DNA of 32,000 nt from Candidatus Saccharimonadota bacterium (GTDB lineage: Bacteria; Patescibacteriota; Gracilibacteria; BD1-5; UBA6164), in contig OZ245768.1 of NCBI GenBank assembly GCA_965227835.1, forward strand, positions 360,001 through 392,000, read 5' to 3'. The notes beneath the pieces are model-generated. The model was not told where the DNA came from, made no database searches, and saw only the letters and a list, made by a program, of their open reading frames with translations. The position numbers and the translations under genes are program-made. Below are positions 10,654 to 32,000 of this stretch, piece by piece (within the stretch, counting starts at the first letter, position 1; the number at the start of each line of letters is the position of its first letter).

Positions 10654-10807
10654 AAAATGAAAATGAAATCACTTTAAAGTTAGATTTAACAATAAAAATT
10701 CCATTATACCTGTACATGGAGGTAGAAATTTACCTATTTGACTTTTAAAAGCTATTTTTAACCAACTAGATATTGATAAAGATTTGGATATATTTAAGGA
10801 TTTTTAA
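10622..10807 (+). pseudogene. hicA: HicA-like toxin lacking an ATG start (truncated or non-canonical start)
   Basis: The frame reads KILTKHGALVKKGKGNHFKVRFNNKNSIIPVHGGRNLPIGLLKAIFNQLDI..., a HicA pattern (G-x-H ... IP-x-H ... L-x-x-G-x-L). The frame opens just after a TAA at 10619 and has no ATG. It overlaps the hicB 3' end. Confidence 0.5.
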
Positions 10808-10817
10808 ATGATTTATT

Positions 10818-11069
10818 ATGCTTGATAGAAAGAATTTAATATATAGGAACAAAGAGCTTTTTTGGGATATATCTGATTTTAATAAACTTGGAGATGAAGC
10901 TTTAGAAGAAAGATTTTTAATGTATTGAGATTGGAAAAATATTTTAGATTTAATAGATATTTTTGGATATGAAAAATTTAGAAATATTTATTTAAAATTA
11001 AAAAATAAATCTAGGTGTAGTTTAAATAAAAAGACTATTAATTTTTTTAATCTTTACTTGAATGTATAG
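10818..11069 (+). CDS. Small protein, putative cognate antitoxin of the downstream AbiEii-like gene
   Basis: 83 aa. ...KELFWDISDFNKLGDEALEERFLMYGDWKNILDLIDIFGYEKF... Its stop overlaps the next gene's start. Confidence 0.4.
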
Positions 11070-11675: not shown

Positions 11676-11695
11676 GAATTTATTTGAGATTTGAT

Positions 11696-11989
11696 ATGAG
11701 ATTATATAAATGACAATATAATTTACTTCAATCTTTAGCAAAAACTATTAACTGAGATTTGTATTTGTTTTGAAGTAGGGTTTATGACAATAAAAAAGGC
11801 TGAGATATAGATATTTTGATTATAAATAAATCTGATAAAGATAATTTAAAATTATCTCTTGAGGTTGAAAGAGAATTTTTTAAATGTTACGAGCAAAAAA
11901 TTGATGTTGTTGTTTTTAATGAAAATATGACGAGAGAGCAAAGACTATTTTTTGATAGTATTAAGAAGCAAAAAATATGACAGATTTAG
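11696..11989 (+). CDS. Minimal nucleotidyltransferase (MNT), second pair
   Basis: 97 aa. LYLFGSRVYDNKKGGDIDILI motif. Overlaps the downstream HEPN gene. Confidence 0.7.
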
Positions 11990-12402
11990 AAAGAGTTTAT
12001 TATGAACAAGTTTTGAAAGCTTATACTCTATATAATGCTAGTTTAAAACACTTGTCTTCTCTTGAAATAGAAAAATTGGAAACACCGGAAGATTTAGAAG
12101 TTCTTGATGCATTTTTTTCTAGATTTGAAAGGCTTATAGAGTTGATTTTAAGTAAATTTTCTAAAACAGTTGAGATAAAAGAATTTTGAATTAGTGAATG
12201 AACTCTTAGGGATAGATTATCTTTGATGGAAAAGAAATGATACATTAGAGATTTAGATTTATGGTTTGATATGAGATGAGTAAGAAATAAAATAGCTCAT
12301 GAATATGTGAATAATTGACTCAAAGATATGTATATTTTCATAATTAATAATTATGATGAAGAGATTAAATTTTTTGTATCTAAAATAAAAAATATTTTTT
12401 AA
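11977..12402 (+). CDS. HEPN/DUF86-like protein, second pair
   Basis: 141 aa with TGA=Gly. ...WFDMRGVRNKIAHEY... carries the R-x(4)-H HEPN motif. Confidence 0.65.
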
Positions 12403-12418: not shown

Positions 12419-12859
12419 ATGTCTGATAAAAAAAAGAAAATTTTTCCAAAATTAAAGAAAAAGTTAAAATGATTTCTTACTGATGAGAGTGGTAAGATTA
12501 GTAAAAAAGATGCTCTTGGTTTAGCTGCTGGTGCTGCTTTGCTGGGTAGTGTTGGTGAGGTTGCCGCTCATAGTAGTTGACATGGTAGTTGACATGCAAA
12601 TTGAAAAAATCGTCGTGACAGTAGCCAAGATCATCACTGAAGTGCAGTTTGACATGGTAATGCTTCCTGTTCTGTAAATCATGCAAGTTGAATAGTAAAT
12701 TGACATTATAGTTGAACTCCGAATGCCACTGTTGTGTGAGACTCTTGACATTGAAGTGCTTCAGGATCAAATGCAAATGGTCATGGAAGTCATGGAAGTC
12801 ATGGAAGTCATGGAAGTCATGGAAGTCATGGAAGTCATGGAAGTCATGGACAGTGGTAA
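12419..12859 (+). CDS. hxsA: His-Xaa-Ser repeat precursor protein HxsA-like
   Basis: 146 aa: MSDKKKKIFPKLKKKLKGFLTDESGKISKKDALGLAAGAALLGSVGEVAA-HSSGHGSGHANGKNRRDSSQDHHGSAVGHGNASCSVNHASGIVNGHYSGTPNATVVGDSGHGSASGSNANG-(HGS)x7-HGQW. Basic leader, hydrophobic segment, then degenerate and finally perfect H-x-S repeats. 11 in-frame TGA codons. Confidence 0.75.
12782..12850 (+). repeat. Perfect 9-bp tandem repeat catggaagt x7 (plus partial copy) encoding (His-Gly-Ser)n
   Basis: Direct reading. Units start at 12782, 12791, 12800, 12809, 12818, 12827 and 12836, with partial catgga at 12845-12850. Confidence 0.95.
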
Positions 12860-12890: not shown

Positions 12891-13580
12891 ATGAGATATT
12901 TATTAATTGTTATTTTTGTAGTTAGTGTTTTATTAAACATATATCTTTTTTTAAGTGTTCATTATAATAGTACTTCTAAAAAAGCTGAACTATCTACTGA
13001 GCCTTCCTATAATAGTTGAGCAATAGAATTAGGATTTGTCGAAACTAATTTATCAACAAATGAGACTTCTCTAAATTGTGATTCTATGTTAGATTGATCT
13101 ATTGAATTGGAAGATATAAGAAATGAAAATATATCAAATTTATATGATTCTTATAAAGATATTTTAAATGTTATAAAATATATTTGAGAAGAATGAAATG
13201 ACTATGAAAAATTATTTAATCTTAAAAAAGGAAATTGTGATTTTTATGACACAAAATCTGAATATGATATATGTATTGATATTAGAAATAAAAAAGATAA
13301 CTTTATTGCAAGAGATATTTCAGATTATGATAAAGCCATACTTACTTCAATTAGTTCATCTGAAAATAATTGTTCAACTCTAAAAGATAATAATGACATT
13401 GAGGATTGTAATCTAACTTTTGAAAATTTTAATAATTTTCATCTTTTGGAGAATCCTGAAAATATTTTTTTGGCTAGCGACATTCAAATCTGAAAACTGT
13501 ATTCAGATTATTGAAAAAATAAACTCATTGAACAATTGAATACAGATTTTGTTTCTAAATGTAAATTTTATATGAAATAA
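12891..13580 (+). CDS. Membrane-anchored protein with scattered Cys, unknown function
   Basis: 229 aa. N-terminal anchor MRYLLIVIFVVSVLLNIYLFL, then an Asn/Asp-rich domain with 7 Cys. Open only with TGA=Gly. Confidence 0.5.
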
Positions 13581-13670: not shown

Positions 13671-15009
13671 ATGAATTATACCTTGTCAGATAGAAATTTT
13701 TTGTCTAGTACATTTAATAATTTTAGATTTATTAGATTGTTGAGAATTGAAACTAAAGACTTTGAATTAGTTGACAGTGATAGAATAATAAGTGGATACA
13801 AGGATTGTATTGAAAATAATAATAGAATTGATTTATATATTCATATTCCATTATTGTTATAAAGAATGTTCTTTTTGTTATCATAGAATGGATCAATATA
13901 GAGGTAAGGAATTAATGGATTCTTATATAGACTTGTTAGAACAACAAATGAAAAACTTGTTCATCTTTTATTGAAAGATATATATAACTTCTTTATGGTT
14001 ATGATGATGAACTCCAACAGTAATGACAGAACAACAAACAATCCGACTATTTAATATTATTGATAAATACTTTATTAGAAATCCAAAATACATCTCAACC
14101 ATAGAATGACATCCTAATTCCCTTTCAAAGTCTAAAATAGATATATTAAGTCAATTTTGAATATCTATGATATCTATTCCCTTACAAACACTTAATGAAA
14201 ATTCATTAAAAATGAACAATAGATACTCCTCCTCTTATATTTATCAAGCTCAGGAAATGATAAACTACTCCATTAGAAAAAAATTTACAGAAGTATCTTC
14301 AGATATGATTGTTTGATTGGAATGAACTAATTTAAAATATGATATAAAAACATTCAATTTTTTAATGAATCTATGAGTGGATTGTATAGTAATCTTTCCA
14401 TATCAATTGAGTACAAAAAATCATAGATTTAGTAATACCGAATTTATAAAATTTAATAAAAATATAGAAGAAAGAATTAATTCATTGTTATTATACATAA
14501 GAAGATATACTGTATACAATATATTCAATCATGCAAAATATTGTAATGCTATATATGTGACTAAAAATTTATATTTAGGTGATAAAAAGTATCATACATT
14601 TTATTATAGATCCAAAAAAAGTCTAATATGATTAGGAGCATATGCTTTATGACATACATATAAAAAAAATTATTATAATTGTGATCTTGAAGATTATGTT
14701 AATAATAAAGGCAAATACAAATTATATAAACTATCTGATAATGAAGATATTTTATATTATATTTTAATGAATTTTGATAACTACTGATTTATAAACACTA
14801 AAGTATGTAATGAAATATTTTCTGTTGATATATTTAAAGCATTCAAAACACTCTCTTATCTTTTATCAAAGGAAGTAATTTACTTGAAGTGAAATTATAT
14901 ATATTTAAATGATTCTATGAGTAGAGACAAGATATTTCTTTATTTCTTAAAAATGATAAAGATAGAATTTCCTAATTTATATTGTCAATATGGTATCAAC
15001 AACATTTAA
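13671..15009 (+). CDS. HemN-like radical SAM protein, apparent +1 frameshift at ~13851 (intact from ATG 13792 in the downstream frame)
   Basis: Frame 1 (13671-13862) ends ...NRIDLYIHIPLLL*. The next frame reads ...YCYKECSFCYH...LWLGGGTPTV...IEGHPNS...ISIPLQTL...VGLEGTN..., ending at TAA 15007-15009. Skipping one base gives LYIHIP-YCYKECSFCYH, the canonical HemN-family motif. Confidence 0.7.
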
Positions 15010-15949
15010 AGAAGTATTTATAGAGCTAACTGACAAGTGTAATTTATCATGTGATTACTGTCATAAATATTGATGAAATAGCTTTATAGAAATAAAACTA
15101 TTTGAGAAAATTATTTCTCAAATAGTTAATAATCACCTTTCAAAAATTGATTTTTTGTGTATTTGGTGATGAGAACCTTTTTTGCATCCTAAAATTGAAA
15201 ATATATTTCAAATACTATCCAAATACTTCCAATACGTTCAAAAAGATTTCAAAATAGTTATTAATACAAATTGAATTTTATTGAAAAATAATATTCAAAG
15301 GATAAAAAAACTCGCTCAAAATTTAGATAATATAAATTTTGTGTTGTATGTTTCTCTTGACTGATATTGAATAAATTGAAATATTTATAGGAAAATAAAT
15401 CACAGAGAATATAAAATTATTTTAGAAAATATAGATAACATTTTATTAATTAATAGCCATAACTTGTCATTACAAATTAGTTCAGTTTTAAATTTTCAAA
15501 AATGAGTTTATAATATATCTGACTTTATAAATTTTTGGAATTTAAAATGAGTTTCAATAAATTTCTGCTTTCAAGAAATGTTGTATTGAAAGAATAAAAA
15601 ATTAAACAAAGGTTTATTGCTAAATATATTAACTAAAGCACTTTTCCTCTATAAAAATTGATATAATATTGTTATAGAAAATAGTTTAAATATGAATAAT
15701 GTTATTAGAATTGATGTTTTTTGAAATGTTTATAATTTTTTTGATAAAAGTTTCTTTGAGAAAAATAATTATAAATTTCTATTGTCTAAAAATTGAGATT
15801 TAGATTTTTTAAACCAAGGTAATTGGGAGTTAGAAATTGAAAATGATTATATTTGGTCTATTATATATAGAGACAAAAATTATTTGAAAATAATAAATTT
15901 ATTTTACAGTTTGTACTTGAAAAATAAGACAATTTCATGAATGGATTAG
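14990..15949 (+). CDS. Radical SAM protein
   Basis: 319 aa. IELTDKCNLSCDYCH near the N-terminus, then CIWGGEPFLHP (GG = TGA TGA). Overlaps the upstream gene by 20 nt. Confidence 0.7.
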
Positions 15950-16023
15950 AAATTTATAGTTATTTTTTTGGTTTTTTAAATTAAATTTCTATTAATTAAT
16001 ATTTTTGTTATTAGATAATTATT

Positions 16024-17403
16024 ATGGATAGTTTAAATAAAGATTACTGGAATACCTTTGCTTTCATAGCTGATAATACAACCGAATGAGAAGTCTTTCC
16101 ACCAGAAGACTTATTTAAAAGCTGTTCTAAAAATGATATTTTTTCTCTAATAAAGAATTATGTAGATAGTTGAAACTATAATAAGAAACCATATTTATCT
16201 TTATATTTTAATTTTCCATATTGTAACGAAAGATGTAGTTACTGTTGCTTAGCTAGTATTTGATTAAACAATAAATCAAAAATAGAAAAATATATTCTAG
16301 AATTGATAAGTGATATAAAAGCTGTATGAAGAATCTTAAAATTAAATCCTCAAATAAAAATTGATATATTATTTTTTTCTTGATGAACTTTTACTATTAT
16401 TGACGATTTTTTATTTGAATTATTCCTGAAGACCATAAAAGATAATTTTCAATTTAAAGATAATTATACATATGAAATGGAATTACATCCTGCTACAACT
16501 ACAGAAAATAAAGTTAATATAATGAAAAAGTACTGAGTAAATACTGTAATGTTATGAATACAATCATTAGATGAGTTAGTTTTGAAAAATTCTAACAGAA
16601 TTCAAACAAATAAACAAGTATTTAATGCAGTTAATCTAATTAGAAAATTCAACTTCAAAACTCTTAATGTAGACATAATCGCTTGATTGCCCTTTGAAAA
16701 AATTAGTACTTTTGTCAATAACCTAAAAATCATAATTACTAAAATTAATCCCGATATTATACATATGTATCCATTTTCACCAACAGATAATACATTGTTT
16801 ACAAAAATGTGACATAAGTTTACATCAGAACAGATAATAAATAGAGATAAAATGTTTTTATTATGAGAAAAATTAATTAAATCTTTTGATTATATAAAGT
16901 CAGATTGATATGTAAAAGTTTGAAAAGAAGTAAATAGCATATGGTGAATGAAATGCTATAAAGATATGTCCGTAATATCTTTTTGATATCCCCTTGATAT
17001 TCAATGATATCTTGAATGAGTATGATGTTATACCTCTCGGTATAATAGTAGCTATGCTATATATACTTATAAAAGTAAAGATATTATTTTGAGAAGAGAA
17101 TTATTTAGACTAACTTGGCTTTGAAAAGATATAAATTTAGCACATTTAAACAATAAATTCTGAATAGATGTTTTAAAGTATTTAAGTAGTGAATTTAGAG
17201 TTTTATTTGATAGTAATATCATTAATTTTAAATGAAGTGAAATTATTAGTTTTAATACTAGATATGTTTGGGAAAAAACTATATGTAGATGGATTTTTTT
17301 ACCTAAAAATTTATTAAAGGAGTTTTTACTTAAAAATAAAATTAATCATAATATTAATTATATAGATAAATTTAGGAAAAAATTATGAGAATATTATAAA
17401 TAA
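16024..17403 (+). CDS. HemN-like radical SAM protein (paralog of the 13671 gene)
   Basis: 459 aa. LYFNFPYCNERCSYC, FFSGGTFT, MELHPATT, MLGIQSLDE and DIIAGLPFE fit the HemN/coproporphyrinogen-III-oxidase-like family layout. Confidence 0.75.
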
Positions 17404-17414
17404 TTTATATAATT

Positions 17415-18344
17415 ATGAAACATATAGAATTAAATATATGACTTGCTTGTAACCATAAATGCATCTTTTGTATGTCGGGTATTGCAAGATGAAAAATTTT
17501 GTGATTTGAAAATGTATCTAATTTAAAACATGAAATAGATACATTATCTTCTAAATGATATGATTCTATATGATTTTTATGATGAGAACCTACTATACAC
17601 CCAGGTTTTTTGGAATTAGTATCCTATGCTAAACAAAAGGGCTTTATTAATATTGAAGTTATAACAAATTGATCAAAATTTCATAATAAGAAAATCTTGT
17701 TAGAATGTGTTAAGTCAGGATTAACAAGAATATCTTTATCAATTCATTCTCTTGATTATAAGAAAGAATCTATTTTATTATGAGGTATAGATAATGCTTT
17801 AGATCAAAAAATAGAGTCAGTAAAGAATATAGTTTATATATATAATAAATGATTATTAAAAAAAGAGCTATCTATAAATATTGTTGTAACTAAAAAAAAC
17901 TATAAAGATATCTATAAATTAATATTATATCTTTATAAGTTTTGAGTTAATTCTTTTAGGCTTAATTTTGTTCAACTTGAATGATATTCAACACAAAACT
18001 ATAATTTAATAGCAATAAAATATGAGAATTTTAAGAAATATCTATTAGATATAATATCACTAAGTAAAAAATATTTAGATTTAAGAGTAAATTTTGAAGC
18101 TATACCTTGGTGTTTTAGTTGATTGAATTATAAAGATTATTTAATATATTCAGAACAATCTATCGATAGGGAAAAAGATAAAATATCTAGAGACGATATA
18201 GATTTTAAATCTAGAAATATTATAAATCAACTTGATAGAAGAAAAGAATTGAAGTGATATATAAAAAAATGTAATATGTGTTTTTTGAAATCAAATTGTG
18301 AAGGAATTTGGAAAAGATATTTAGAATATTTTAATATTAACTAA
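17415..18344 (+). CDS. Radical SAM protein with C-terminal Cys-rich (SPASM/twitch-like) tail
   Basis: 309 aa. NIGLACNHKCIFC, GFLGGEPTIHP (17571-17591, three Gly by TGA), and C-terminal KKCNMCFLKSNCEGIW. Confidence 0.75.
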
Positions 18345-18350
18345 ATTATT

Positions 18351-19274
18351 ATGAATATTTCATGCGCATCAAATTTAGACGATGTATTTATAAAAAAAAT
18401 ATCTGATAATATAAATGAAAAAAAATTAGAATTCTTCTTATCTTTTCCTAGTGATAAATTCTCATTGAATAGACATTTTATTCCCAATATAAATTATGTT
18501 GACTTTAAGAAACATATACATTTAATAATATCCAGTTGATATAAAGTAAATTATTTACTAAACTCTTTACTTATAAATGATTATGATTTATTGATAAAAA
18601 AAATCTCAGATTTAACAAATATCTGAATAGATACCTTTACGGTTTCAGATTTAAAGGTTATTGAATTTTTAAATAAAAAATTTCCCCAAATTAATATTGT
18701 ATTATCTATTATTTATTGACTAAAATATACAGAAGATATTTATAAACTTTTAAAAAAATATAGTATTTCTAGATTTATTTTTGATCAATCTTTAAATCAT
18801 AATTTCAGGGGTTTAATAAATTTGACAAAAGAATGTAAAAAAAATTGAATAGAAACAGAAATTTTAGTTAATGAATTATGTTTTACTGATTGTAAATATA
18901 GAAAACAACATTATAATTTAGATTCTAAATATAGCAAAATTGATTTTAATTTAAAATCTAAACTATGAGATTATTGTAATGATGAAAGAAAATCAAATAA
19001 CATAATTTTAGACTCTCCTTGGATTAGACCTGAAGATATTGAAATATATGAAAAAATATGAATTGACTATATAAAAATATCGTGAAGAAACTCGTGAACA
19101 GATGTCTTATTTAATTGCTTGGATTCTTATATAAATAAAAATTATATTTGAAATTTTTTTGATTTAATGGATTTAGATTGAAAAAGAGATGATAAAACTT
19201 GAAGATCAGAAACAAGGTATTATGATAATAAAAGATTAAACTCAGTTTTATTATCTAAAATTAAAAAATTATAA
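18351..19274 (+). CDS. Peptidase U32 family-like protein
   Basis: 307 aa. ...SPWIRPEDIEIYEKIGIDYIKISGRNSG... resembles the U32 (PrtC/YhbU-type) core motif ending in K-I-x-G-R. Has Cys pairs (LCFTDC, DYC). No CxxxCxxC. Confidence 0.45.
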
Positions 19275-19278
19275 ATAA

Positions 19279-20187
19279 ATGAATAATATACGTTCGCATT
19301 TAATACGTGTAAATATGATTTGCAATGAAACATGTTCTTTTTGTAATGTAACAAGCCAAACTGAACCAAATTATAAAGATAAAACTATTTTTGAAATTCT
19401 AATAGAAGTTCAAAAAATTATTAAAAAAAATAATGGTCCTGAACTTGTAAAAATTACTTTATCATGATGAGAGCCCACCATTAGAAAAGATATTTGTAAA
19501 ATAGTTCTTTGAATTAAAAAACTATGAATTAAATATATTGAAGTCCAAACAAATGCAACATTATTAAAACCTAAATTAGCTTGAGATCTGATACTATCTT
19601 GAGTTAATAAATTTTTTATTTCTTTTCATAGCAACAATAAAGCTATATTTGAAGAGTATGTTTGACTTAAAAAAATATTTAAAATAGTTGTAAATAACAT
19701 AAAAAATTTATGAAAATATAATGATATTGAGGTCATATTGAATCCAGTGATAAGTAGGAAGAATTATCAAAACTTAAAATCATATTTTGATTTTGTTAAA
19801 AAGGAATTTATTTTTGTAAAGTATATATCTTTATCTTTTATTCAGCCACACTGAGAGGCTGAAAAAAATATAGACTTAATGCTAGATTATGATTTTGTTA
19901 GTAAAAATTTAGCTTGAATATTAGATTATGCTTATAATTTGTGATTTATTTTGAATAACCCCTATTGTTGATTGCCAATTTGCGTTTTATGATGGGATAA
20001 ATATAGTAAAAATTGTATAGAAGTTATTGAAGGTAAGGAAATTATTGACAATAATAAATTAAGGTTTGATAACAATAAAATATACTTGGAAGAATGTCAA
20101 AGCTGTATTTATAAATGATTATGTGGTTGAGTTTGGAAAAAATATGTAGATTTATATTGAAATAAATGAATTAATACCATAAAATAA
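19279..20187 (+). CDS. Radical SAM protein with C-terminal Cys-rich tail
   Basis: 302 aa. VNMICNETCSFC, ITLSGGEPTI, and C-terminal ECQSCIYKGLCGGVW. Confidence 0.75.
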
Positions 20188-20197
20188 ATTAAAACCA

Positions 20198-21112
20198 ATG
20201 AAAAGATTAGAGTTTCACATTTCATATATTTGTAATCATGACTGTATTTTTTGTAGTGAATATGATAGATTAGTTACATATAAAAAAAATCCTTTAACTA
20301 TTCTTCAAATAAAAACTATATTGCTTGATAGAAGAAAGAAATGATTTAATCATATTAATTTTACTTGATGAGAACCAACAATCATACCTTGATTTATAAA
20401 TGTTTTGAAATTTGCAAAAAAGCTTTGATATAAAATTTATGTTTGAACTAATGGAACCATGTTTTCTTCTAATGATTTTGCAAAGCAAGCACTAGAATTT
20501 ATAGATGAATTATCTTTATCTATTCATTGGTATGATAAGGAAACTTGTGAAAAACAAGTCTGAGTACCCAATCATTTTAATATTTATAAAAATTACATAT
20601 CAAAAAATATATGAAAATATAAAAACGATAAAACATTTTTATTTTCTAACGTTGTTTTAAATAAATACAATTATAAAAATACTTTAGATATAGTTAAATT
20701 TATAAAATCTACATATCCTTGAATTAAGCAAATACTAATATCAAACATAGCTCCTGAATGATTAGCAGATAATGATTTTTCTAGTTTAGTTTTTGATTTA
20801 CTTAATTTTAAAAATTATATTCCTGGCATTGTAAATTATTGTAATGATAATGATTTAATATTAAGGTTTTTTTGAATACCGATGTGTATAATAACAGAAA
20901 AATATCAGGATTATTCTAATGATAAACATTGGGAAGAAAGGCATACAATAGAAAGATTTACTAATGAGAATTGAAATATTGTATTGAAAGATATTTATAG
21001 TCCGGATAATTCTAGAAAAAGATCTTTTGTTTCCAAATGTGAAACTTGTAAGTGGAAAATAAATCCTTGTACAGGAGTTTTTAAAAAGTATTTAGATTAT
21101 TATAATATATAA
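20198..21112 (+). CDS. Radical SAM protein
   Basis: 304 aa. HISYICNHDCIFC, NFTGGEPTI, and C-terminal KCETCKWKINPCTG. Confidence 0.75.
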
Positions 21113-22065
21113 TGGAACTTATATATATACTTACATATGATTGTAATTTTAGGTGCAAATACTGTGATATAAATAAGAGAAATGAAAATATATCTGATAA
21201 TATAATAAAAAAAAGTATTACCTATTTAAGAAACAATAACTTTGATATAGATAAAGTTAAGTTTTTTTGATGAGAGCCATTACTAAAGAAACAAGAGATA
21301 GAATTTATTGTAAGCAATTTTCCAAAAAAATATAATCCTAATTTTTATATTACATCAAATTCAACATTAATTAACGATGATTTTATTAATTTTGTTAAGG
21401 ATAATAATATTAAGCTAACCTTTAGTATTGATTGAAGTAACAAAACAACTAGTGAAAATAGAATTTTAGAAAATTGATTAAATCTATCTAATAGTATAAT
21501 AGAAAATACTAAAAAATATAAGGATAATATAAGAATTAATCAGGTTATAACCTCAAAAAATTCAAAAGATTTCTTTAAAAATTTTAAATTTATATATGAT
21601 TTATGAGTTAGGAATTTTAATTTCTTACCTGAATATTATAAAAGATGGAGTAAGTCATGACTATCAAATTTGAAAAAATGATTTGATGAAATATATGAAT
21701 TTTACAAATCTTGAAACTATTTTGGCTTAGTTAATTTAGATAATTATAGTGATACTTCCTTCTTTAATCTCTGAATTGTTATTGATACAGATTGAAATTT
21801 GTATTTAACTAATTTAATACTTTCATGAATATTTGAAAAATATAAAAAAAATTTAACTGTATGAAATGTATATGATTGTAATATACAAGTTAACTTTTCA
21901 AACGTAAATTTTAGTAAAAAATATTTAAAAAGAATTAAAGAAATTATAAAAAAGGAGTATAGTGAAGAAGTTTTAAAATCTGTTAAATATGTCGACTTAA
22001 TATTAAATAATTTTTGTAATAACTTTAGTTTATGTCAACAACAAAATTTATCTATAACCAAATAA
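21112..22065 (+). CDS. Radical SAM protein
   Basis: 317 aa. ILTYDCNFRCKYC, KFFGGEPLL. Its start overlaps the upstream stop (TAATG at 21110-21114). Confidence 0.7.
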
Positions 22066-22088
22066 AAGAAAAATATATTAGTATAAAA

Positions 22089-23018
22089 ATGTTTAATCAT
22101 AAATTTCCTAATTTAATTGATAATATTTTTATTGAATACTGAATAAAAATATCTGTAGTAAAGAAGTTTAGGTTTCATGCTTGTAACACCGTTTTGCTTA
22201 TGGAATCAAATCGAGGCCATTTATATATTTTAAAGATTTTTAATAAGATTCAAAGATATGGACAATTTGAAATTGAATATAAAATTTCTAATATTTTAAG
22301 TAAAAATTGAATAATAATACCTAAAATAATTAAGAATTTATCAAATGATTTTAATAGCTTTTATGATACGAAAAAAATTGTTTTATATGATTTTATAGTT
22401 GCTAGAGATTTATCATGAAGTATTGATGATATAGATTTAGTTATTAGAAAATTTGCTAATTTTCATATTACTCTTAATTCTAATATTTATATTACAAATC
22501 TATTTTATCAGAAGAAATTATTTAACAAAGAGCTTAGTAAAACAAAGAACAGTATTTTTTATGATATATTTTGCTTTTTTAAAAATACAAAATATAGTAT
22601 ACTTACTAATATTTTAAAAAATTGTTTAAATTTTAACTTGTATTGTGATATTGAAAATATTATTTATTGATGATTGAGCAAAGATCATATAGCTATAAAA
22701 AATCATAATTTAATCTTGTATGATATGGAGTCTATATGACTTTGAGACTTATACTTAGATGTTATGTATGTAATATATTATTTATGATATAGAAATAACG
22801 ATGAAAATTTGGAAATTTATAAAATGATTCATATGTTAAATGTATATAATAAATTTAATAAATTGTATATAACTAAAAAAAACTTTAATCTATATGTTCT
22901 TTATTTTTTATTTTTAGATTTTAAAGTTATGTTAAAACAAAAAAATGAATTTACAGATTTTCATTTAAATAGACATTATTATAATATTTTAAATTTTTAT
23001 AAATTATATTTTTGATAA
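22089..23018 (+). CDS. Kinase-fold (APH/CotS-like phosphotransferase) protein, divergent catalytic loop
   Basis: 309 aa. ...IIYGGLSKDHIAIKNHNLILYDMESIGLGDLYLDVMYV... has the Brenner-like region and the D-x-E...D-L pattern of APH-type kinases, but lacks a clean H-G-D-x(4)-N. Confidence 0.45.
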
Positions 23019-23719
23019 ATAACGAAAAAATAAAGATAGTTTTTGATAAGCTTTTAAATAAATGAAGCTATAAAATTTATAATTCAAATGTTGGCTTCAT
23101 TGTAGTTCCTTATAAATCAAAATTTGTATATAAGATATTTTTTAATCAGAAATTATTTTTTAGAGAACTAAATATTTATAACCTACTAAGAGAAAATTCG
23201 AATATTCTCATACCAAAATTTAAGAACGATTTTTCATTAAAAAATTTTTTCGTACTCAAACTAGAAAATGTTAGAACACAATATGAAAGAAAAAATAATA
23301 TATTAGACTTAGATTTAAAACAGATTGCTGATATATTATATACTATTCATAGTTTTTCGTATAATTCAAGAAACCTAATTTTATGAGATATACATTCATC
23401 TAATTTTTACGAAATAAAATATGATCAAGAATTAAAATTATGAATATTTGACTTTTCATCCTCAAAATACTGAGATATAGAAGAAGATATAGCTAATCTT
23501 TATATAGAAATATGAATAAATGATTCAATTTTGAAAAATTTTCTAAAGTATTATTGAAATAATAATATTAATTATTTAAAAATTTATTATTATTCTATAA
23601 GTGAATTATACGAAAGAATTAAAAATGGTATGAATTTATCAAATGAAAAAATAAATATATATAATAAAATGTTATTGTCTCTAAGGTATAAATTATGAAA
23701 ATTAAGCATTTTAAAATAA
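23012..23719 (+). CDS. Kinase-fold (APH-like phosphotransferase) protein
   Basis: 235 aa from a TTG start, since no in-frame ATG is available after the TAA at 23000. LILGDIHSSNFY...LKLGIFDFSSSKYGDIEEDIANLY matches the H/L-G-D-x-H-x-x-N and D-F motifs. Confidence 0.5.
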
Positions 23720-24450
23720 TTTGATATTGTAATATATTTGAACAAGTTATAATTTGATGAAGCAAATTAAAAATAGATGTACTGATTGATGATTATGATT
23801 GAACTGAATTAGTTTTAGATATTTCGAATTATTCACACAAGAAATTTATCAGTTTTTTTTGTAATAATTTTTCTAAAATTATAGAAGTTAATTTTCTTTG
23901 ATATAAGGGATTAAGTTGTGGTAAAAAATCTTTAGATTCTAGGATTAAACTGAAAAACAAATGAAATATTTATTACTCAAATACAATATGAAATTATATT
24001 TTTAATGAAGATTTTGTATGTATTAACAATTATAACTTTAAAAATCTTGATCATCATTTATGAGTATATAATAAATATGAAAATTCGTTATATGAACAGG
24101 TAAGGGGAATAAATAAGATAAAATTATATCCGAATGACATTATTTTTTTTGACAGAAATAAATGAAATTTGAATAATTTTATAAATTTATGACTTAATTT
24201 TAATTATATAATTAAGAGTTATATAATTAATTTAAAGAGATGAAAAAAAAGTATTTTTTATAGAAATATTTTTTGAAAAGATTCTAGTGATATAGTATAT
24301 GAAAATATAAATAGAATATTAAAAAGTTTCAAATATGGTACATATTTTATCTACAATGTTGATTTAGAATATTTAGATAATTATGTATTTGATGAAAAAT
24401 ATTATTTATATGACTATCATTTTAAACCAGTTTTTAGTAATTTTATTTAA
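23695..24450 (+). CDS. Hypothetical protein
   Basis: 251-aa open frame with TGA=Gly, overlapping both neighbours. No family recognised. Confidence 0.45.
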
Positions 24451-25409
24451 TGAAAAAATTGAAACACATAGAAATAAATATTTGAAAAGCTTGTAACAAT
24501 AAATGTAAATTTTGCATGAGTTCGAAACCTTCTTTATGGGATATAAAATTCTCAAAATTTGATATCATAAGGAAAAGTCTAAATGAATATTATAATAATT
24601 GATATAGATCTGTTTGATTTTTATGATGAGATATATCAATACATCCGAATGTATTAGAAATTATTAAATGTTGTAGAGAAATATGATATCAGAGTATTAA
24701 CATTATTAGTAATTCTATGAGGTTTAGTGATTTCTCTTTTGCATATAATATAGTAAAAAAATGACTAACTAGAATTAATATATCAATACACTCTCATATT
24801 AGCTATATTGAAGATGATTTAACTCAAGTAAAATGATGATTACAAAAAAAACTAAGAGCAATAGATAATTTTTCTTTTTTATATAAAAAATGAATTTTAC
24901 AGAGTCCAATTAGTATTAATATTGTTGTAAATAAAAAAAATTATTTATATATTGTTGAAACCGTTCTATACTTTTTTAAGGAAAAAAATATAAAAGATAT
25001 AAGAATAAACTTTATTCGGCTCAGTGATGATGTGAAAGAAAATTGGGATTTGCTTAAAATATCATATAGTGAGTTCTTGCCATATTTAAAAAAGCTTATA
25101 TATCTGTCTCTAAAATATAATATAAGAATTACTTTTGATACCTTTCCTCCATGTATATTTTATTTAGTAAGTTTTAAAAATTATAAATATATCATTAATA
25201 AGTTTTTATGAGAAAAGTTTGATCATATAAACGAAATACTATGGTTGAATAAAGAAACAAGTTTTAATTGGAAAGATAGGAAAGCTAATGAATTGAAGGC
25301 AAAATTTAAACAATGTAGTAACTGTTTTTATGAAAATGTTTGCGAATGAGTATGGAAAGAATATGATGAAATTTATTGAAATAAAGAATTTATTCCCATA
25401 AAATTGTAA
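24450..25409 (+). CDS. Radical SAM protein (paralog of the 17415 gene)
   Basis: 319 aa. NIGKACNNKCKFC, GFLGGDISIHP, GLTRINISIHS, and C-terminal KQCSNCFYENVCEGVW. Collinear with the 17415 protein. Start overlaps the upstream stop (TAATG). Confidence 0.75.
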
Positions 25410-25413
25410 TAAA

Positions 25414-26601
25414 ATGTGATATGTGAAGATATGTTTAGATGACGATATTAATACAATTATTTATAATACTTACTACCATGTAAAACATTGAATAAATAAT
25501 GTATTATTTTATAATAGTTTAAATGGAAAAACTTTAAATAAAAATAAGGTACTAAAAGTTGTATCATACATGATAAATAAGCATAATTCTGTAAAATATT
25601 TGTTTTATAATGTACCATTTTGTATTTTTGATAAATTGTGAAAGAAATTTATAGATAAATATTGTGTATTTAACAGATTATGTAATTATTATATTTGATA
25701 TAATAGCTATGGCAAATGTAATTTGTGCGATTTTGGTTTATTTTGTAATAATTTTAATTCTCTAATTAATAATAGTGAAATAAAGGAATTAAACGGTTTT
25801 TACTGAGAAAAAATTAATAAATATACTTTTTTGATAAAGTTTATAAAAATATATAATTTTTTCATAATGCTATGATATTCTGATAATGAAATAATCTTGA
25901 GTTCAAGGCAGAAATATTTTATGCAATTTTTGAGGGGTGCTAAAATTAATAAAAATTTCTTATCATATTTAACTTTGACTATTAAATTATCTAATCGATA
26001 CATAAATTATAATGTCTTTAAAAATAAAAATAAAATTGCTATTTTTAAAAATAAATGTTTAAATGATATATTTTTTTATTTACAAAGAAAGTGCTGAATA
26101 AATATTTTGTTGGAATGTGATAACTCTACAATTGATTTATTTGAAAGTAATAAATTTGTAGTAAACTTTCTTGGTAAAAACCTAATTTTTTTAAATACTT
26201 GATTTTATAATATAGATCCCCCCTTTTTTGATTTTGATTATAATAATTTATTTTTAGATAAAAATGCTACTGTATTTAAGTGAGTATCTTTAAATAAAAA
26301 TTTAGGTATATTTTATGGGAATGCTAGAATTGTAAAAAACTCAAAAGATTTTTTGTACAATAGAATTTGAGATGTTTATGTTTGAAAAGATATTTTTTCT
26401 TGAGTAAATATTGAAAGTTTTAAGGCTATACTTATTACAAGTGATTGATCATCAGAACATGTTAGACTCTACGAAATAATAAACTCTATAAAAGTTCCAA
26501 TTATTGAAAGGATAAAACCAAATATAGTAGAAATTATAAAAAATGGAAGTAAATTAAAGATTGATTTTAGTACTTGAACTATCAATTTAATTAAAACATA
26601 A
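25414..26601 (+). CDS. Cys-rich protein resembling a stand-alone auxiliary-cluster (SPASM-like) domain plus unknown C-terminal domain
   Basis: 395 aa. The N-terminal third carries PFCIFDK...YCVFNRLCNYYIGYNSYGKCNLCDFGLFC. No CxxxCxxC/GGEP core. The frame agrees with track ORF 25897-26097 read through TGA. Confidence 0.45.
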
Positions 26602-27633
26602 ATTTTTAAAAATTAATTGTATTTAATTTTATTATTTCCATTTTTGAGATCCCCCCTTTATTTATACAGAAGTAGTAAAATATAATAGAGATTTAAAGTT
26701 GAAAGATTTATCTTTAGTTATAAAACCTCGTTGACTCTTGAATTGATTTTAATTATACCATTAATTGTATATATGTTAGACATATTTATATATTTAAAAT
26801 GAGGCATAATAGTAAAAAATGTGTGGCTAAAAGAGATATTATTTGGTAATATAAAAGCAAATACTCTCTAACTTTTATCTATGGGAAATAAAACCTACAC
26901 GAAAAATTGTAATAAATGCTGATCAAATGAAATAAAAAAAGATTGATTTAAGAGATGAAAATAAAGATATAAATGTAAAAAATGTTGATATGTCTTTCAG
27001 AATAGTAGTAGAAAACAAAAGGTAAATATAAACAAACTATATCATGACTATTGTTTTTGAAAACAAACATATGAACAACTATCAAATACATACTGAATAT
27101 CAATTAAAACAGTTCAGAAAAATTTAGATGAATATAAACTACAAGTACCACAAATAAAAGCTAAAGAAGTAGTACTGCTAATAGATACAACATACTTCTG
27201 AAACCTCTGAGTAATGGTCTTCAAAGATGCTTATAGAAACAAAGTGCTTCATATCAAGATAGTAGATAATGAGAATAATGAAGACTACAAAAACTGAGTA
27301 AAAGAACTAGAAAAAGCTTGATTTATAATAAAAGCTATAGTTTGTGATTGAAGAAAATGATTATTGAATTGATTTTCAAATATTCCTACTCAGATGTGTA
27401 ATTTTCATCAGGTAGCTATAGTGAGAAGGTATATAACTAAAAAGCCTGTTTTAGAAGAAAATAAAGCGTTAAAATGGATTACAGATTTACTTACAAAAAC
27501 AGACAAAGAAACTTTTAGCTATTATCTTGATTTGTATTGAGAAAAGTATAAAGATTTTTTAAATGAAAAATCTTTATGAAGAGATTGAAAGTTACATTAT
27601 ATACATAGAAGAACTAGGAGTGCATATTTTTCT

Positions 27634-28704
27634 TTAAAAAGGGTAATGGTCCTTTAGATAGGTACCACCAATTTTAGCAAGATTATCTAGGATAAGGACA
27701 GGGAAATTATTAAATTTTGTAGGAAGAATTATATTACAACTTCTAAGTTTTTCAATAGGACTTAAACCGTTCATACCTATTCAAAAAGAAGGTCTATAAT
27801 TATTATAAGTATAAATATATTTACTACTATGGTTTAAAAAATTAGGAAGAGATTTCATGCGATCAAGATAAGGTCTATATAATTCTTCATCATCAGTTCT
27901 ATGAGATCTCTCTACAATTCATTGAAGATATTTTTTTCAAGCAGGAATACTCTTAAAACAGCAATTTATATTATTTAATATAGCATTCCACTGATTTTCC
28001 TTTCTCTTACTTCATCCACAAAAATCAGCAGGGCCATTATCTCATTGAAATTCCATATGATAATATATTCACATACTCCTAAGATATGTAGCTATAGTAA
28101 GTATAAACATAAGACCAAATTCAGAAGAAAGACTATGAGAATAAGCTATAAATTTATATTTTGTTTTAGCACATATATATGTCCATTGATATAAAGGAAG
28201 ATTATATTTTCTTAGTATAAAACAAAGTTCTCATAAAGCTTCAAAATCTTCTATATGCTTTGTATCTACTTGACCATACTCAAAGGGAAGAATATTTTGA
28301 TAATCGTATAGAGGTTTACTATCTCATTTTCTACGAGAATAATGATGCTTTTTTACTTTGTTTCTTTTTAGTATATTTCATATAGTAGAGGAAGAGAATG
28401 TTATTCCATATCTGAGGAATAAATACTTTGCTAGACGTACTCTTCAATATTTTGTTTTATTTCGTTCTTGTAATACAAGTCATTCTAAATCAGAAGATGT
28501 TTTTTTATTATGAGGAGTCTTAGGAGCTCTTGATATATTTTCTATAGGACCATCTCTACTTCTTCTTACTGTTTTACGAGAACATCATAATATATAAGCT
28601 GTTTTACTTACGTTTCCTTTGTTTTCTTCAAGTATCGACCTCGCGAGGATTCTTGCTGATTCTACTCCTTGCTTAGTACACATTTTTTCATATAATCATT
28701 TCAT
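27634..28704 (-). CDS. DDE (rve-type) transposase of the nested IS
   Basis: 356 aa with TGA=Gly. N-terminal HTH region, then ...GQVDTKHI..., ...EFQGDNGPADF..., ...GKKYLQGIVERSHRTDDEE..., the D, D, E integrase-core pattern. The stop lies within the left target duplication. Confidence 0.8.
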
Positions 28705-28819
28705 AAGAGGTTTGGGATTATAAAATAAAATTTTTTACAAAATCTATTATATCCTCATCCTCTTTTTTACACAATTCCATATCAATAAATAGTGGTACCT
28801 ATCTACTGGTACAGATAAT
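27642..28819 (-). mobile_element. Nested IS (IS481/IS3-like rve transposase) with 15-bp target-site duplication
   Basis: Direct repeat tttttctttaaaaag at 27627-27641 and 28820-28834. Perfect 14-bp subterminal inverted repeat tagataggtaccac (27655-27668) and gtggtacctatcta (28792-28805). Confidence 0.75.
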
Positions 28820-29050
28820 TTTTTCTTTAAAAAGAAATTTGAAATATTTATTTACTCGGTATGATTATATCTGACAAATAGATATTCCAAATACTACTAA
28901 CTGATTAGAGTGAATTTTCGGTCATATTAAATGTAAAGTTGCTTTACATAGATGACTTAAAAAAGAGAGAAAAATTAAACTAATATTATCTCTCTTATAT
29001 AGGAAAATTTAAGTCTCTCAGCCACCCACTTTTTACAATTAAACCTAAAA

Positions 29051-30319
29051 ATGGAAAATAAAATAAATTTACTCTCAAAAGAACAAACAACAAAACAAAA
29101 TAGAATATGGGTAAGGATAGCATCAGCCTGTAACAATAAATGTATTTTTTGTTTGGATAGTGATGCTCAAAATGGAACATTCCCTCAAGAACAAACCATC
29201 AAAAAACAAATAAAAGATTGATATAAACCTTGATATGAAAATAGAGTTATTATTTCTGGTTGAGAAGCTTCAATTAATCCCAGATTTCCAGAATATATAT
29301 CTTATGCCAAGATTATTTGATATCATAGAATTCAAACAGTTACAAACGGAAACATGTTTTTTAGAAAAGAATTCTGTGATAAAGTATTTTATGCTTGACT
29401 TGAGGAAGTCACTTTTTCTTTTCATTGACATAACTCAAAACTCCATGACTACCTCGTCGCAACTCCATGAGCTTTTAAAAAATCTTTGCAATGACTTATT
29501 TATATAAAAAAATATTATCCCGAAATTATCCTAAATGTAGACATAGTAGTAAATAAGGTAAATGTAAAGTATCTTCCAGACATCGTTAAATTTTTTATGA
29601 AACTTTGAGTGTATGAATTTGATATTCTCCAAATTATACCTTTTTGAAGGTGATTTCGTGAATATAAAAAACAGCTATTTTATGATATATCGACAAATGT
29701 TTACCATTTACAAAAAACATGGGAACTATCAAAAATACCTTGAATGTATATGTGGACCAATAGATTTCCAGTTGAAGCATTTGAATGATATGAAGATTTA
29801 ATTCAAGATCCAAGAAAGATAAAATCTGAAGTTATGTGAGAAGGTAGGGAAATGTTTGAATCATTTATAAAATCTAAATGAAAAGATAAGCCTGAGTGCT
29901 TTTGAGAAAGATGTGATTATTGTTTTTTAAATCAGTATTGTCATGGTTATATAAATAATATAAATACCAAGAAGTTAGATATAAATTCAAATTATAAAAT
30001 TATATATTGAGAAGAGTTTCCAAGCCTCGTTTATGAAAAATATTGAGAGAATTCAAAAGATTTTAAAAAATATTTAAAATCAATAAATAATAAATTAATA
30101 AATATTCCAAAATGCTTATGATGAACTTGAATTTATCAAAAATATAATGATTTAAAACAAAGAAATACTTTAGAGGATTATACCTATAAATATATTAAGA
30201 ATTTATATATAAAGAAATCTTTAAATTGTAAAAAATGTAAATATAATAATAAATGTGAAGGAATTCATATAAATTTTATAAGAAGTTATGGTTTTAGTAT
30301 TTTACAACCAATTAGGTAG
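29051..30319 (+). CDS. Radical SAM protein with C-terminal Cys-rich region
   Basis: 422 aa. VRIASACNNKCIFC, IISGGEASINP, VTFSFHGH, and later ECFGERCDYCFLNQYCHG and LNCKKCKYNNKCEG. Confidence 0.75.
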
Positions 30320-30412
30320 TTTTATCATATCATTTTTACTTTTTTTACCCGATTATAAGTTTAAATGTAGTTATTAAAAATTAAATTATATATCAATTAA
30401 CTATAAATTTAA

Positions 30413-31357
30413 ATGGCAAATATTTGATACATACAAGTAAATAGACATTGTAATAATGCATGTCATTTTTGTAGTAATCCAAGTAATGGGAATAATATTA
30501 GCTATGAAAGATGAATATATCTTATAGATGATTTTGTAAAAAGATGATATAGATGAATAATATTCACATGATGAGAGCCAACACTTTCACCAGATTTGCC
30601 TAACTGGCTTGCATATACAAGGGAAAAATGAATAGAAAATAGAATGATATCTAACTGAATGATGTGTTCAAATTCGAAATTTATGAAAAATTTAGCCGAA
30701 TCTTGATTAGAATTAGTTCATTTTTCTGTTTATTCTTGTTTTTCTAAAATTCATGATTTTTTGACAGATACACCTGGAAGCTGGGAAAAATTAATAAAAT
30801 CTATAACAAATGCTTTAAACAATTGAGTAAGAGTTCAAATAAACACAGTTATTAATCATTATAATGAAAATCATTTAGATAAAACAATAAAATTTTTGAC
30901 TAAAACCTTTCCTCCTATAACTCATTTTGTTTGGAATAATTTAGATCCACTTATGATGAGAAAAACTGGCACTGCTTGGTCTACATTGCCAGATTTTGAT
31001 AATTTTAAAGAATCCTTAAAAAAAGCAACATATTATTTAACTGTAACTTGAAGAACTTTTAGAGTTGAAAGAGTTCCTCTTTGTTATATGAATTGATTTG
31101 AATGGGCTTCTACAGAAACTAGAAAAATTGTAAAAAATGAAGAAAGAATAGTTCATTTTTTAGATGATAGAGAAACTATTAGGCAGTATTGAAAACACTG
31201 GGAGCATAATAAGTTAGACTGATGTAAAAGTTGTGATTTAAATAGTATATGTTCATGAATTTATGAATACAGAAAATATTATAATTATGTAAACGTTTAT
31301 CCTCAAAAATTAAATAAAAAAGAAAAACAAGATATAATAAACAAGATAAATATTTAA
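30413..31357 (+). CDS. Radical SAM protein with C-terminal Cys-rich tail
   Basis: 314 aa. QVNRHCNNACHFC, IFTGGEPTLSP, VHFSVYS, and C-terminal DGCKSCDLNSICSGIY. Confidence 0.75.
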
Positions 31358-32000
31358 TTATTTTATAAATTCACTTTCAAAGATTTCTAAAAATAATTTT
31401 GTTATATAGCTAATTATACTATTTCAAAAAATAAATGTAATTACAAATGAAGCTACAATATATGGCGCAAAAGAAAAAGTTCTTAATATTTTTAAATTTT
31501 TTATTTTCATAAATCAATTTGTTTTTTTTTCAATATGGTGATTATTTACCAAGCTAAAAGATTTTTTTATTAATAAGGAAGTTTCTTTATCTATAGGATT
31601 TGATATTTTTGAAAAGTATAATCATGGGTTAGGGTATAATAGATAGTTTTTTTTCTTTTTTTCTTTTTCATTAGGTTCAATATATCATAAAATAGCTTGC
31701 CTCCCCAACATCTTAACCAAATATTCTTTATCCACAATATCACCCTCTTTCAAATCTCTTATATTAATAAATTTCATCTCAGAAATATGAAAAGTAATCT
31801 TATAAGCATAAAAAAGAACTCTAAAAATAATATATATTCATATATATAAAGTAAAAATTAAAAACAAGTACCCTAAAATTTCACTTGGATTTTTGATATA
31901 CTCATAAAATACAAAACCCAATAAAATAATAAATAAAATGACCAAAAACACATTTCAAACTAAATCTAGTCTTAACTTCAACCTATTAGATAAATATTTT
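31358..32000 (-). CDS. Polytopic membrane protein, 5' end outside the window
   Basis: The minus-strand frame is open across the whole region with TGA=Gly. It has several hydrophobic helices and ends ...KILRTFSFAPYIVASFVITFIFGNSIISYITKLF...FIK*. The stop abuts the convergent radical-SAM gene's stop with no spacer. Function not recognised. Confidence 0.45.

Follow-up and report, generated by a model that had tools for sequence, protein, structure and literature searches.

What does a bacterium do with eleven radical S-adenosylmethionine (rSAM) enzymes encoded close together, ten of them behind the gene of a short His-Gly-Ser-repeat peptide? The question is raised by a 32,000-nucleotide stretch of contig OZ245768.1 (positions 360,001 to 392,000) from a Candidatus Saccharimonadota bacterium of the Gracilibacteria, hereafter the window, in which an operon-like cluster of about 25 kb holds the peptide gene and then ten extra rSAM genes. 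The original prediction, made from the letters alone, was of a heavily tailored ribosomal peptide or another multi-step radical pathway, and the family matches and synteny described here support it. We read the cluster as an expanded HxsA4-type His-Xaa-Ser (Hxs) peptide or protein maturation system, a reading to which we give a probability of about 60%. It is carried by six rSAM genes, labelled D, F, G, L, N and O, which are HxsC/HxsC4-like paralogues, and which therefore point to an expanded Hxs system and not to an unrelated assortment of enzymes.

Under translation table 11 the window holds 8 open reading frames (ORFs) of at least 100 residues, against 56 when TGA is read as sense, in DNA of about 21% GC. 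D, F, G, L and O together have 71 TGA positions at which aligned homologues from standard-code organisms carry glycine in 52% of cases and tryptophan in 0.1% (n = 1279), and the code is therefore table 25 (UGA = glycine), which is the code of Gracilibacteria and Absconditabacteria. Genes were called de novo under this table, and TGA accounts for about 75% of the glycine codons of the genes hxsD through O. Table 4 was used to translate most Gracilibacteria proteins of the public collection (P0001, P0003-P0024 and many of P0172-P0291), which puts W in place of G: GGEPT appears as WWEPT and HGSHGS as HWSHWS, and motif searches and alignments are distorted.

Eleven rSAM genes lie in the window, each on the + strand. 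Their CxxxCxxC boxes, all as the original prediction had quoted them, are CNHKCKYC in HxsB, CYKECSFC in A, CNLSCDYC in B, CNERCSYC in C, CNHKCIFC in D, CNETCSFC in F, CNHDCIFC in G, CNFRCKYC in H, CNNKCKFC in L, CNNKCIFC in N and CNNACHFC in O, and all eleven proteins pass Pfam PF04055 (47-84 bits against a gathering cutoff of 29.5). The SAM boxes, previously described as mostly of the GGEP type, are GGE or GGT in ten of the eleven and GGD in L. The earlier count of two HemN-like and eight short enzymes also holds, with the qualification that gene A is frameshifted; what had gone unnoticed is that six of the short enzymes belong with HxsC.

For these six, the top NCBIfam family is HxsC4 or HxsC, with HxsC4 ranking first in five. 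D (17415-18344) matches HxsC4 at 99.9 bits, F (19279-20187) matches HxsC4 at 83 and HxsC at 80.8 bits, G (20198-21112) matches HxsC4 at 91 and HxsC at 87.6 bits, L (24450-25409) matches HxsC4 at 100.3 bits, N (29051-30319) matches HxsC4 at 134.8 bits and O (30413-31357), the usual partner of N, matches HxsC at 94.6 bits. They are full-length paralogues with 22-36% mutual identity (36% between L and D) against 56-75% identity to their orthologues elsewhere, so that the paralogues are old and individually maintained. By gene, orthologue identities are 60-68% for D over the fetched loci, 64-75% for F, 56-71% for G and 54-66% for L; N is the most conserved member of the cluster, with 819 homologues, the top 120 of them at 65% identity or more. 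The Cys-rich C-terminal tails that had been ascribed to most of the short enzymes take the form of a P-x-C ... CxxCx5-6C-x-G motif in six of the eight, present twice in N, which carries two putative auxiliary-cluster motifs, and four cysteines outside the SAM box are invariant over 20 homologues. The predicted structure of a 68%-identical D orthologue (predicted local distance difference test score 87) resembles SkfB, viperins, BlsE, SuiB and MoaA about equally, with template-modelling scores of 0.5-0.65 and SkfB as the best match (E = 2e-11); SkfB, BlsE, SuiB and MoaA are enzymes of the twitch/SPASM type. In PADLOC (2023), a collection with no Hxs model, only generic viperin-type rSAM matches were obtained.

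Four further rSAM enzymes accompany the paralogues. H (21112-22065) is of the PapB/CcpM/HxsB-like peptide-maturase type (PapB, 111 bits) and has orthologues at 59-69% identity. B (14990-15949) is MoaA/W-maturase-like by NCBIfam, is without the C-terminal Cys motif, and is 48-50% identical to its orthologues in L001 and L004, two of the related loci to which we refer by such numbers. A (13671-15009) and C (16024-17403) form a HemN-like pair, 23% identical to each other; the best NCBIfam matches of A are STM4012, HemZ and HemW, all below cutoff, its repaired protein scores 47 bits with PF04055, and C reaches 134.6 bits with HemN against a cutoff of 325. An assignment of these enzymes to known housekeeping pathways was tested, and none of them reaches the cutoff of any housekeeping equivalog in NCBIfam: HemN, HemW and HemZ give 87-135 bits (at most 101 for A and 134.6 for C) against cutoffs of 205-380, and MoaA gives 67.8 bits for B and at most 78 for the others against a cutoff of 284. 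The Pfam scan of the rSAM enzymes of the window found no SPASM and no HemN_C domain.

Upstream of this suite stand the genes that name the system. The hxsD gene (6800-7372, + strand) encodes 190 residues with an acidic C-terminal extension, passes NCBIfam TIGR03976 (58.6 bits, cutoff 50) and is 61% identical to its orthologue in L006. A second, hxsD-like gene of 64 residues (7395-7589, + strand) narrowly passes NF038315 (41.2 bits, cutoff 41), and its orthologues lie between hxsD and hxsB in L001 and L006. The rSAM peptide maturase HxsB (8109-9575) passes TIGR03978 with 486.2 bits against a cutoff of 370 and is 35% identical to HxsB of the Aeromonas pAsa4 operon, which served throughout as the canonical comparison. 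The HxsA4-like precursor, hxsA, follows at 12419-12859 on the + strand.

The precursor has 146 residues, with a Lys-rich N-terminus carrying an FLTDESGK motif, a hydrophobic stretch further on, the motif SHASGIVNGHYSGTP and scattered HxS elements. It ends in (HGS)8-HGQW, a tail encoded by a perfect 9-bp tandem DNA repeat, (CATGGAAGT)x8, at 12767-12856, in which glycine is written GGA although TGA prevails as the glycine codon of the cluster. The repeat number ranges from 4 to 14 or more among orthologues, which suggests slippage. Orthologous precursors share the Lys-rich N-terminus with FL[TS][DE]E[ST][GA]K, the hydrophobic stretch, S-H-A-S-G-x-V-N-G-H and the (HGS)n tail; HGQW closes the precursor in most close relatives, and the wider family has tails of the HGQW, GSRW and GGWC types. 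A profile of the precursor family gathers 561 clusters, few of which have any source name, those few being 'hypothetical protein'. An antisense 'MTSMTS...' ORF at 12521-12847 is an artefact of the HGS repeat.

Between the precursor and A lies g22 (12891-13580, + strand), a membrane-anchored Cys-rich protein with homologues in L001, L006 and L043. Cys-rich proteins with an N-terminal hydrophobic segment stand beside hxsA in L049 (2992-3930), L056 (9213-9998), L057 (8909-9979) and L058 (10373-11104) as well; a g22-type protein thus adjoins an HxsA4-type precursor in every lineage examined, though it is poorly conserved and matches no known family.

The gene order of the window is hxsD, hxsD-like, hxsB, an insert, hxsA, g22 and then the ten rSAM genes, and no rSAM gene adjoins hxsB. 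The rSAM genes had been placed directly downstream of the precursor; they do form a tight run on the same strand, with g22 intervening before A. The layout described earlier is confirmed in its details, with + strand genes, tiny gaps, TAATG junctions at 21110-21114 and 24448-24452, and a 20-nt overlap at 14990-15009. Intergenic gaps from hxsA to M range from -34 to +90 nt and no terminator-like site was found on the + strand over that stretch, and a promoter scan (206 sites against 207 expected) was uninformative in such AT-rich DNA. Judged by gene spacing, hxsA and the rSAM genes may form one transcription unit, a fit that is not proof.

HxsB had been counted as part of the set, and its box and TIGR03978 match bear this out, with toxin-antitoxin genes separating it from the precursor. 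This block (9642-12402, + strand) comprises HEPN/MNT twice, HicB/HicA and AbiEii fragments (PF08780, PF18765, PF07927, PF08843), and a DUF4160 and DUF2442 gene pair (7593-8106, + strand; PF13711 72.5 bits, PF10387 40.4 bits) sits between the hxsD-like gene and hxsB. The block is absent between hxsB and hxsA in L001, L006, L015 and L043, and the pair is absent at the same position in L001 and L006. Since L001 and L006 have hxsD to g22 with nothing between, the block and the pair are insertions. One extra T at 13851, just before the CxxxCxxC box and outside any homopolymer run, throws gene A out of frame, and its deletion restores LYIHIP-YCYKECSFC, a sequence that fits the HemN consensus; the frameshift is either a pseudogene mutation or an assembly error. 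Between M and N, an insertion sequence (IS) transposase gene, IS1 (26965-29012, + strand; Mutator-like, weak match), is interrupted by IS2, whose rve-type transposase gene lies at 27634-28704 on the - strand. The nesting had been predicted, and both inverted repeats and target duplication are seen: the terminal inverted repeats of IS2 are 19 nt long (27655-27673 and 28787-28805), and the FSLKR codons of the IS1 transposase occur twice, in a 15-nt direct repeat at 27627 and 28820.

Support for a joint function comes from other Gracilibacteria, in which orthologues of the rSAM genes are not dispersed. D alone recovers about 25 orthologue clusters at 54-95% identity. In the five contexts that were fetched, all or much of the backbone D-F-G-H-L-N-O is kept at 56-75% identity, and in L001 and L006 it ends at the same inverted A24-peptidase-like gene. 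The same two loci have hxsD, the hxsD-like gene, hxsB, hxsA and g22 directly upstream of the rSAM genes, an arrangement that L043 and L042 retain in part. In L009, L015, L033, L042 and L043, rSAM genes are closely preceded by HxsB and an HxS-repeat gene, and in the first three of these loci both stand upstream of N. A profile of N orthologues finds 34 loci in species-representative genomes, nearly all Gracilibacteria or generically labelled; among the 26 loci open to assessment, 25 have O downstream of N, and an A24-like gene is nearby in about 20. The N loci hold between 1 and 13 CxxxCxxC proteins each, and about two-thirds of the 342 proteins within the clusters are rSAM enzymes. A fragment 76% identical to N was found on a 1.5-kb contig binned as Flavobacteriaceae (L039, JAUMXI010000116.1), which is probably a mis-binned Gracilibacteria contig.

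Around this backbone, related clusters carry optional modules. L002 has PEP-utilizers with PPDK_N (15462-17196); the modules of L004 (5625-7665 and 19800-20504) and L007 (59-2074 and 9751-11010) comprise an epimerase with a DegT aminotransferase and a GT2 glycosyltransferase, a carbamoyltransferase and a Trp-halogenase-like flavoenzyme (108 bits), and L002 and L007 have a weak TP_methylase match. Six loci, among them L024, L025, L026 and L035, have NifH-like and NifD/K-like genes within their HxsC-like clusters; in L024 they are at 3914-7603 among the rSAM genes (NifD/K-like, PF00148; NifH-like, PF00142, 273 bits). These genes are probably 'Group VI' nitrogenase paralogues.

Beyond Gracilibacteria, the same association recurs in bacteria of the standard code and in one organism that is probably an archaeon. 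L049 (42% GC) has hxsD, hxsB, hxsA4, a Cys-rich membrane protein, an H-like and an HxsC4-like rSAM gene, and its precursor passes HxsA4 NF038313 (64.1 bits, cutoff 55). In L054 (30% GC), hxsA4 is followed by H-like, HxsC-like, B12-domain, U32, HemN-like and G-like genes, the last encoding a protein 40% identical to G. At least 7 rSAM genes follow hxsA4 in L056, also of standard code, and 8 follow it in L057, whose neighbours LpxD, OmpH and BamA indicate a diderm. H-like genes come after hxsA4 in L049, L054 and L056, and the precursors of the same three loci end in HGQW. The contig of P0039, with ordinary bacterial neighbours, carries hxsD, a small gene, hxsB, another small gene, a 272-aa gene, five rSAM genes and a co-directional A24 peptidase. 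L058 (ENA ERZ27316110 k141_16705) has hxsD-hxsB-hxsA4 and four rSAM genes, one of them fused to a methyltransferase domain, and its neighbours are exosome subunits, an Rpb6-type RNA polymerase subunit and RtcB, so the host is probably an archaeon. As the mix of HxsA4 precursor, H, HxsC-like, HemN-like and U32 genes recurs in this way, it is not peculiar to one lineage, and the architecture is not confined to genomes of the Candidate Phyla Radiation (CPR) type; the original prediction had called the density of rSAM genes striking for such a genome. The metagenome scan from the precursor side yielded 11 loci only, most of them short; L051, L052 and L053 from that scan proved unrelated.

Several genes interspersed with the suite are less easily placed. 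E (18351-19274, + strand), predicted as a U32-like protein, does pass PF01136 (28.1 bits, gathering cutoff 22.4), and falls short of the UbiU and TrhP equivalogs (19 and 15 bits); no homologue of E was found among the Gracilibacteria loci, and the cluster of L054 has a U32 gene. The prediction of two APH-like kinases (aminoglycoside phosphotransferase fold) fares less well. J (23012-23719, + strand, TTG start) has a GDIHSSN...FDFS motif, a weak PF01636 match below cutoff (18.0 bits against 23.2, E = 0.0025) and orthologues in L011 and L035, and is a small APH-like kinase candidate. I (22032-23018, + strand) has no PF01636 match and no homologue in other loci, and only a weak CotI/YtaA echo (CotI E = 3e-5, YtaA E = 0.19) marks it as a possible kinase-fold protein. 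K (23695-24450, + strand) has no family match and one orthologue, in L010, and M (25414-26601, + strand) is a Cys-rich singleton with no significant family or Protein Data Bank (PDB) match. PDB sequence searches with I, J, M and E gave nothing significant. E, I, K and M are specific to the lineage of the window. A relation of M to the pyruvate-kinase C-terminal domain (E = 0.008) was unsupported, and an equivalence of K-L-M with the module of L002 (a 242-aa gene, L, PEP-utilizers and PPDK_N) was rejected, with homology undetectable and no PPDK_N remnant near the IS elements.

At the far end of the cluster, P (31358-32000, - strand, its ORF open to base 32000) is the C-terminal part of an A24 (type IV leader peptidase) family membrane protein. 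Its full-length orthologue in L001 (16864-18228) matches PF01478 at 29.7 bits against a cutoff of 26.5. This neighbour of about 440-454 aa recurs at the cluster end and is co-directional with the rSAM genes in the non-CPR contig of P0039. That it processes the precursor is speculation, and KG|FLTDE was rejected as an A24 prepilin-type cleavage site, the residue before F being G, S, Q or E in orthologues, so that a G at -1 is not conserved. The upstream part of the window (336-5591) is ordinary, with two ATPases (one PilT/T2SSE-type, one RecF-like), GatC, a cyclic nucleotide-binding protein and a large surface protein that bears a signal peptide.

From these assignments a course of maturation can be sketched, and we infer that all enzymes of the cluster act on HxsA. 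By analogy with the HxsC-HxsD complex of E. coli, HxsB and the HxsD-type small proteins may recognise the precursor through its Lys-rich FLTDESGK N-terminus, and the His/Gly/Ser-rich core and (HGS)8-HGQW tail would then be altered stepwise by radical chemistry. HxsB and H would serve as peptide-maturase-type enzymes; D, F, G, L, N and O, with one putative auxiliary Fe-S motif apiece and two in N, could each introduce their own modification or act at their own site; and the HemN-like C, together with A if that gene is intact in vivo, may add carbon units. The lineage-specific extras E, the kinase-like I and J, K and M may hydroxylate or phosphorylate the product, which would probably be processed and exposed at the membrane, with g22 and the A24-family P as candidate partners. 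The weakest step is the last, in which the product may act as an envelope-level antiphage effector after the model of canonical HXS.

A number of observations weigh against this reading. No paralogue passes HxsC4 (NF038332, cutoff 500; best N, 134.8 bits) or HxsC (TIGR03977, cutoff 267.9; best O, 94.6 bits), the Aeromonas HxsC is only 18-22% identical to the HxsC-like proteins of the window and carries about 110 additional residues as an N-terminal domain, and the modelled HxsC-like fold does not separate peptide from small-molecule substrates. The precursor falls short of HxsA4 (NF038313, cutoff 55) at 29.3 bits, as does its L001 orthologue at 53.1 bits, and of HxsA3 at 28 bits; it is without the signal peptide or peptidoglycan-binding layout of canonical HxsA, having instead a Lys-rich N-terminus and a C-terminal HGS tail. 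L024 has hxsD and hxsB with no HxS-repeat ORF within 21.7 kb, and several long clusters have no HxS ORF in the flanks examined. The nitrogenase-like, sugar-modifying, halogenase-like and TP-methylase-like genes of related clusters would equally suit a small-molecule pathway, N is unusually conserved for a defence gene, and this copy of the cluster, with its frameshift in A, IS elements and toxin-antitoxin insertions, may be partly decaying.

Some of these points are what an account without a peptide substrate would lead one to expect, in which the small molecule made by the rSAM suite is not a peptide but, for instance, a cofactor of the reduced tetrapyrrole type or another, and the Hxs genes are mere neighbours. 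We consider this unlikely. In its favour are the NifH-like gene (273 bits) and two NifD/K-like genes inside the rSAM cluster of L024, with counterparts in five further loci, yet these L024 genes lie within about 5 kb of hxsD and about 9 kb of hxsB, and Pfam and NCBIfam scans found no NifH, NifD or NifK gene in the window itself. NirJ, AhbC and AhbD do appear among the secondary NCBIfam matches of D, F, L, N and O, and HemN-like enzymes, the weak TP_methylase matches, the sugar-modifying genes of L004 and L007 and an L024 cluster without an HxS ORF all fit such a pathway; the top families are nonetheless HxsC4 and HxsC, and peptide-maturase-type HxsB, HxsD and H accompany the suite in at least five lineages. 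Tetrapyrrole synthesis is also not known from reduced CPR genomes, which we count against this account. The tetrapyrrole proposal itself was made by Meheust et al. 2020 for rSAM suites beside Group VI nitrogenase paralogues (bioRxiv 10.1101/765248).

Improbable to a similar degree is that precursor and enzymes work as we propose and the product is a small excised peptide-derived cofactor or metal-binding molecule, not a defence effector. Such a pathway would follow the logic of pyrroloquinoline quinone (PQQ) and mycofactocin, in which a short precursor is handled by a small chaperone, an rSAM enzyme and a peptidase, and is in some cases glycosylated. The small HxsD-type partners, the recurrent peptidase neighbour, the glycosyltransferase and sugar genes of L004 and L007 and a constrained C-terminus (HGQW in most close relatives and in L049, L054 and L056) all agree with it, and the strong and broad conservation of N and O in Gracilibacteria suits core physiology better than patchy defence. 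On the other hand, tails vary in the wider precursor family, and the precursor has a hydrophobic membrane-type segment and is always beside a membrane protein; moreover, the sole experimental Hxs system yields a protein effector (PMC13128918). Least credible by far is a chance assembly of unrelated rSAM and housekeeping genes, or a decaying remnant without joint function. The frameshift in A, two IS copies, several toxin-antitoxin modules and the lineage-specific E, I, K and M could be so explained, but order and orthology are kept over many species-level genomes, a synteny that largely refutes it, the ORFs other than A are all intact and closely spaced, none of the housekeeping equivalog cutoffs is reached, and the same family mix occurs in distant lineages.

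If the cluster is an expanded Hxs maturation system, Hxs-type precursors can couple to an order of magnitude more radical chemistry than in the four-gene system, and this expanded coupling reaches from dozens of species within the Gracilibacteria to several further bacterial lineages and a likely archaeon. The cluster would take up about 1.6% of the genome, if the genome is close to the 1.49-Mb contig that carries 95%-identical orthologues, and so large a share of a reduced genome implies strong selection. It is also a source of natural 'add-on' enzymes for dissecting Hxs chemistry, for which the standard-code clusters L049, L054, L056 and L057 are far easier to express than recoded CPR genes. 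More tentatively, and at a low probability by our own estimate, we put forward that HxsA4-type precursors with 5-13 rSAM enzymes form a widespread, unrecognised super-class of peptide maturation in Bacteria and Archaea, that Group VI nitrogenase-like reductases act on a His-Xaa-Ser-repeat peptide and not on a tetrapyrrole, and that the Gracilibacteria product is a heavily cross-linked His-derived envelope polymer or a cofactor central to their biology. This offers a concrete alternative hypothesis for Group VI function and, if true, would give the first nitrogenase-family enzyme in the maturation of a protein or of a ribosomally synthesised and post-translationally modified peptide (RiPP).

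How does this cluster compare with known systems? Among RiPP and peptide-cofactor pathways, those of SkfB, SuiB, PapB, PqqE/PqqD and MftC/MftB follow the same general logic, in which a small partner protein and rSAM enzymes, their auxiliary clusters being putative in our case, serve a short precursor; H and HxsB match the PapB and CcpM models, and no curated RiPP-maturase cutoff is reached. The 10-13 rSAM genes per precursor seen here are far above the number in typical RiPP clusters. Suites of such size have been described elsewhere: Meheust et al. 2020 reported up to 13 adjacent rSAM genes, HemN-like ones included, beside Group VI nitrogenase paralogues in Elusimicrobia, and 'similar loci' in two Gracilibacteria genomes (bioRxiv 10.1101/765248), and a 2026 review lists the function of these paralogues as unknown (PMC13474568). 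The window differs in having no NifHDK, those papers mention neither Hxs genes nor a peptide precursor, and we found no paper tying rSAM suites to Hxs genes.

The HXS system itself, hxsD-hxsB-hxsC-hxsA, was defined by bioinformatics by Haft and Basu in 2011, as a citation in PMC9062424 has it, and was linked to a function only in 2026, when Li et al. described the four-gene system as an antiphage defence that blocks phage DNA entry by way of an rSAM-matured effector (PMC13128918). In E. coli, HxsB, HxsC and HxsD mature HxsA, with N-terminal cleavage and a change of +8 Da on an SHRSS motif, and HxsC binds HxsD; 99.7% of HXS examples are from Pseudomonadota and 99.8% have four genes (PMC13128918). 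For comparison with SHRSS, the precursor of the window has a conserved SHAS motif. The window resembles canonical HXS in its HxsB and HxsD, both of which pass the canonical models, in a precursor with tandem His-Xaa-Ser repeats, and in HxsC-related rSAM enzymes with the P-x-C ... CxxCx5C C-terminal pattern. It departs from it in having six remote HxsC-like paralogues in place of one HxsC, in adding H, B, two HemN-like genes, U32 and others, and in gene order, with hxsA preceding the HxsC-like genes where the canonical order is D-B-C-A.

Also close are the systems behind the NCBIfam models HxsA4 (NF038313), HxsA3 (NF038309), HxsC4 (NF038332) and HxsD-like (NF038315), on which we found no paper and of which L049 is an example. 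The precursor design is shared, with an FL..EEGK N-terminus and an (HGS)n-HGQW tail; the precursor of the window is longer, with a variable middle, and the rSAM genes rise from about three to eleven. The statement that no described pathway has this composition therefore stands in so far as none was found, with partial precedents in the HxsA4/HxsC4 models and in Meheust et al. 2020. On the best-supported reading, the cluster is an Hxs system widened from two to eleven rSAM enzymes, within a broader class of HxsA4-linked multi-rSAM systems that we have not found described.

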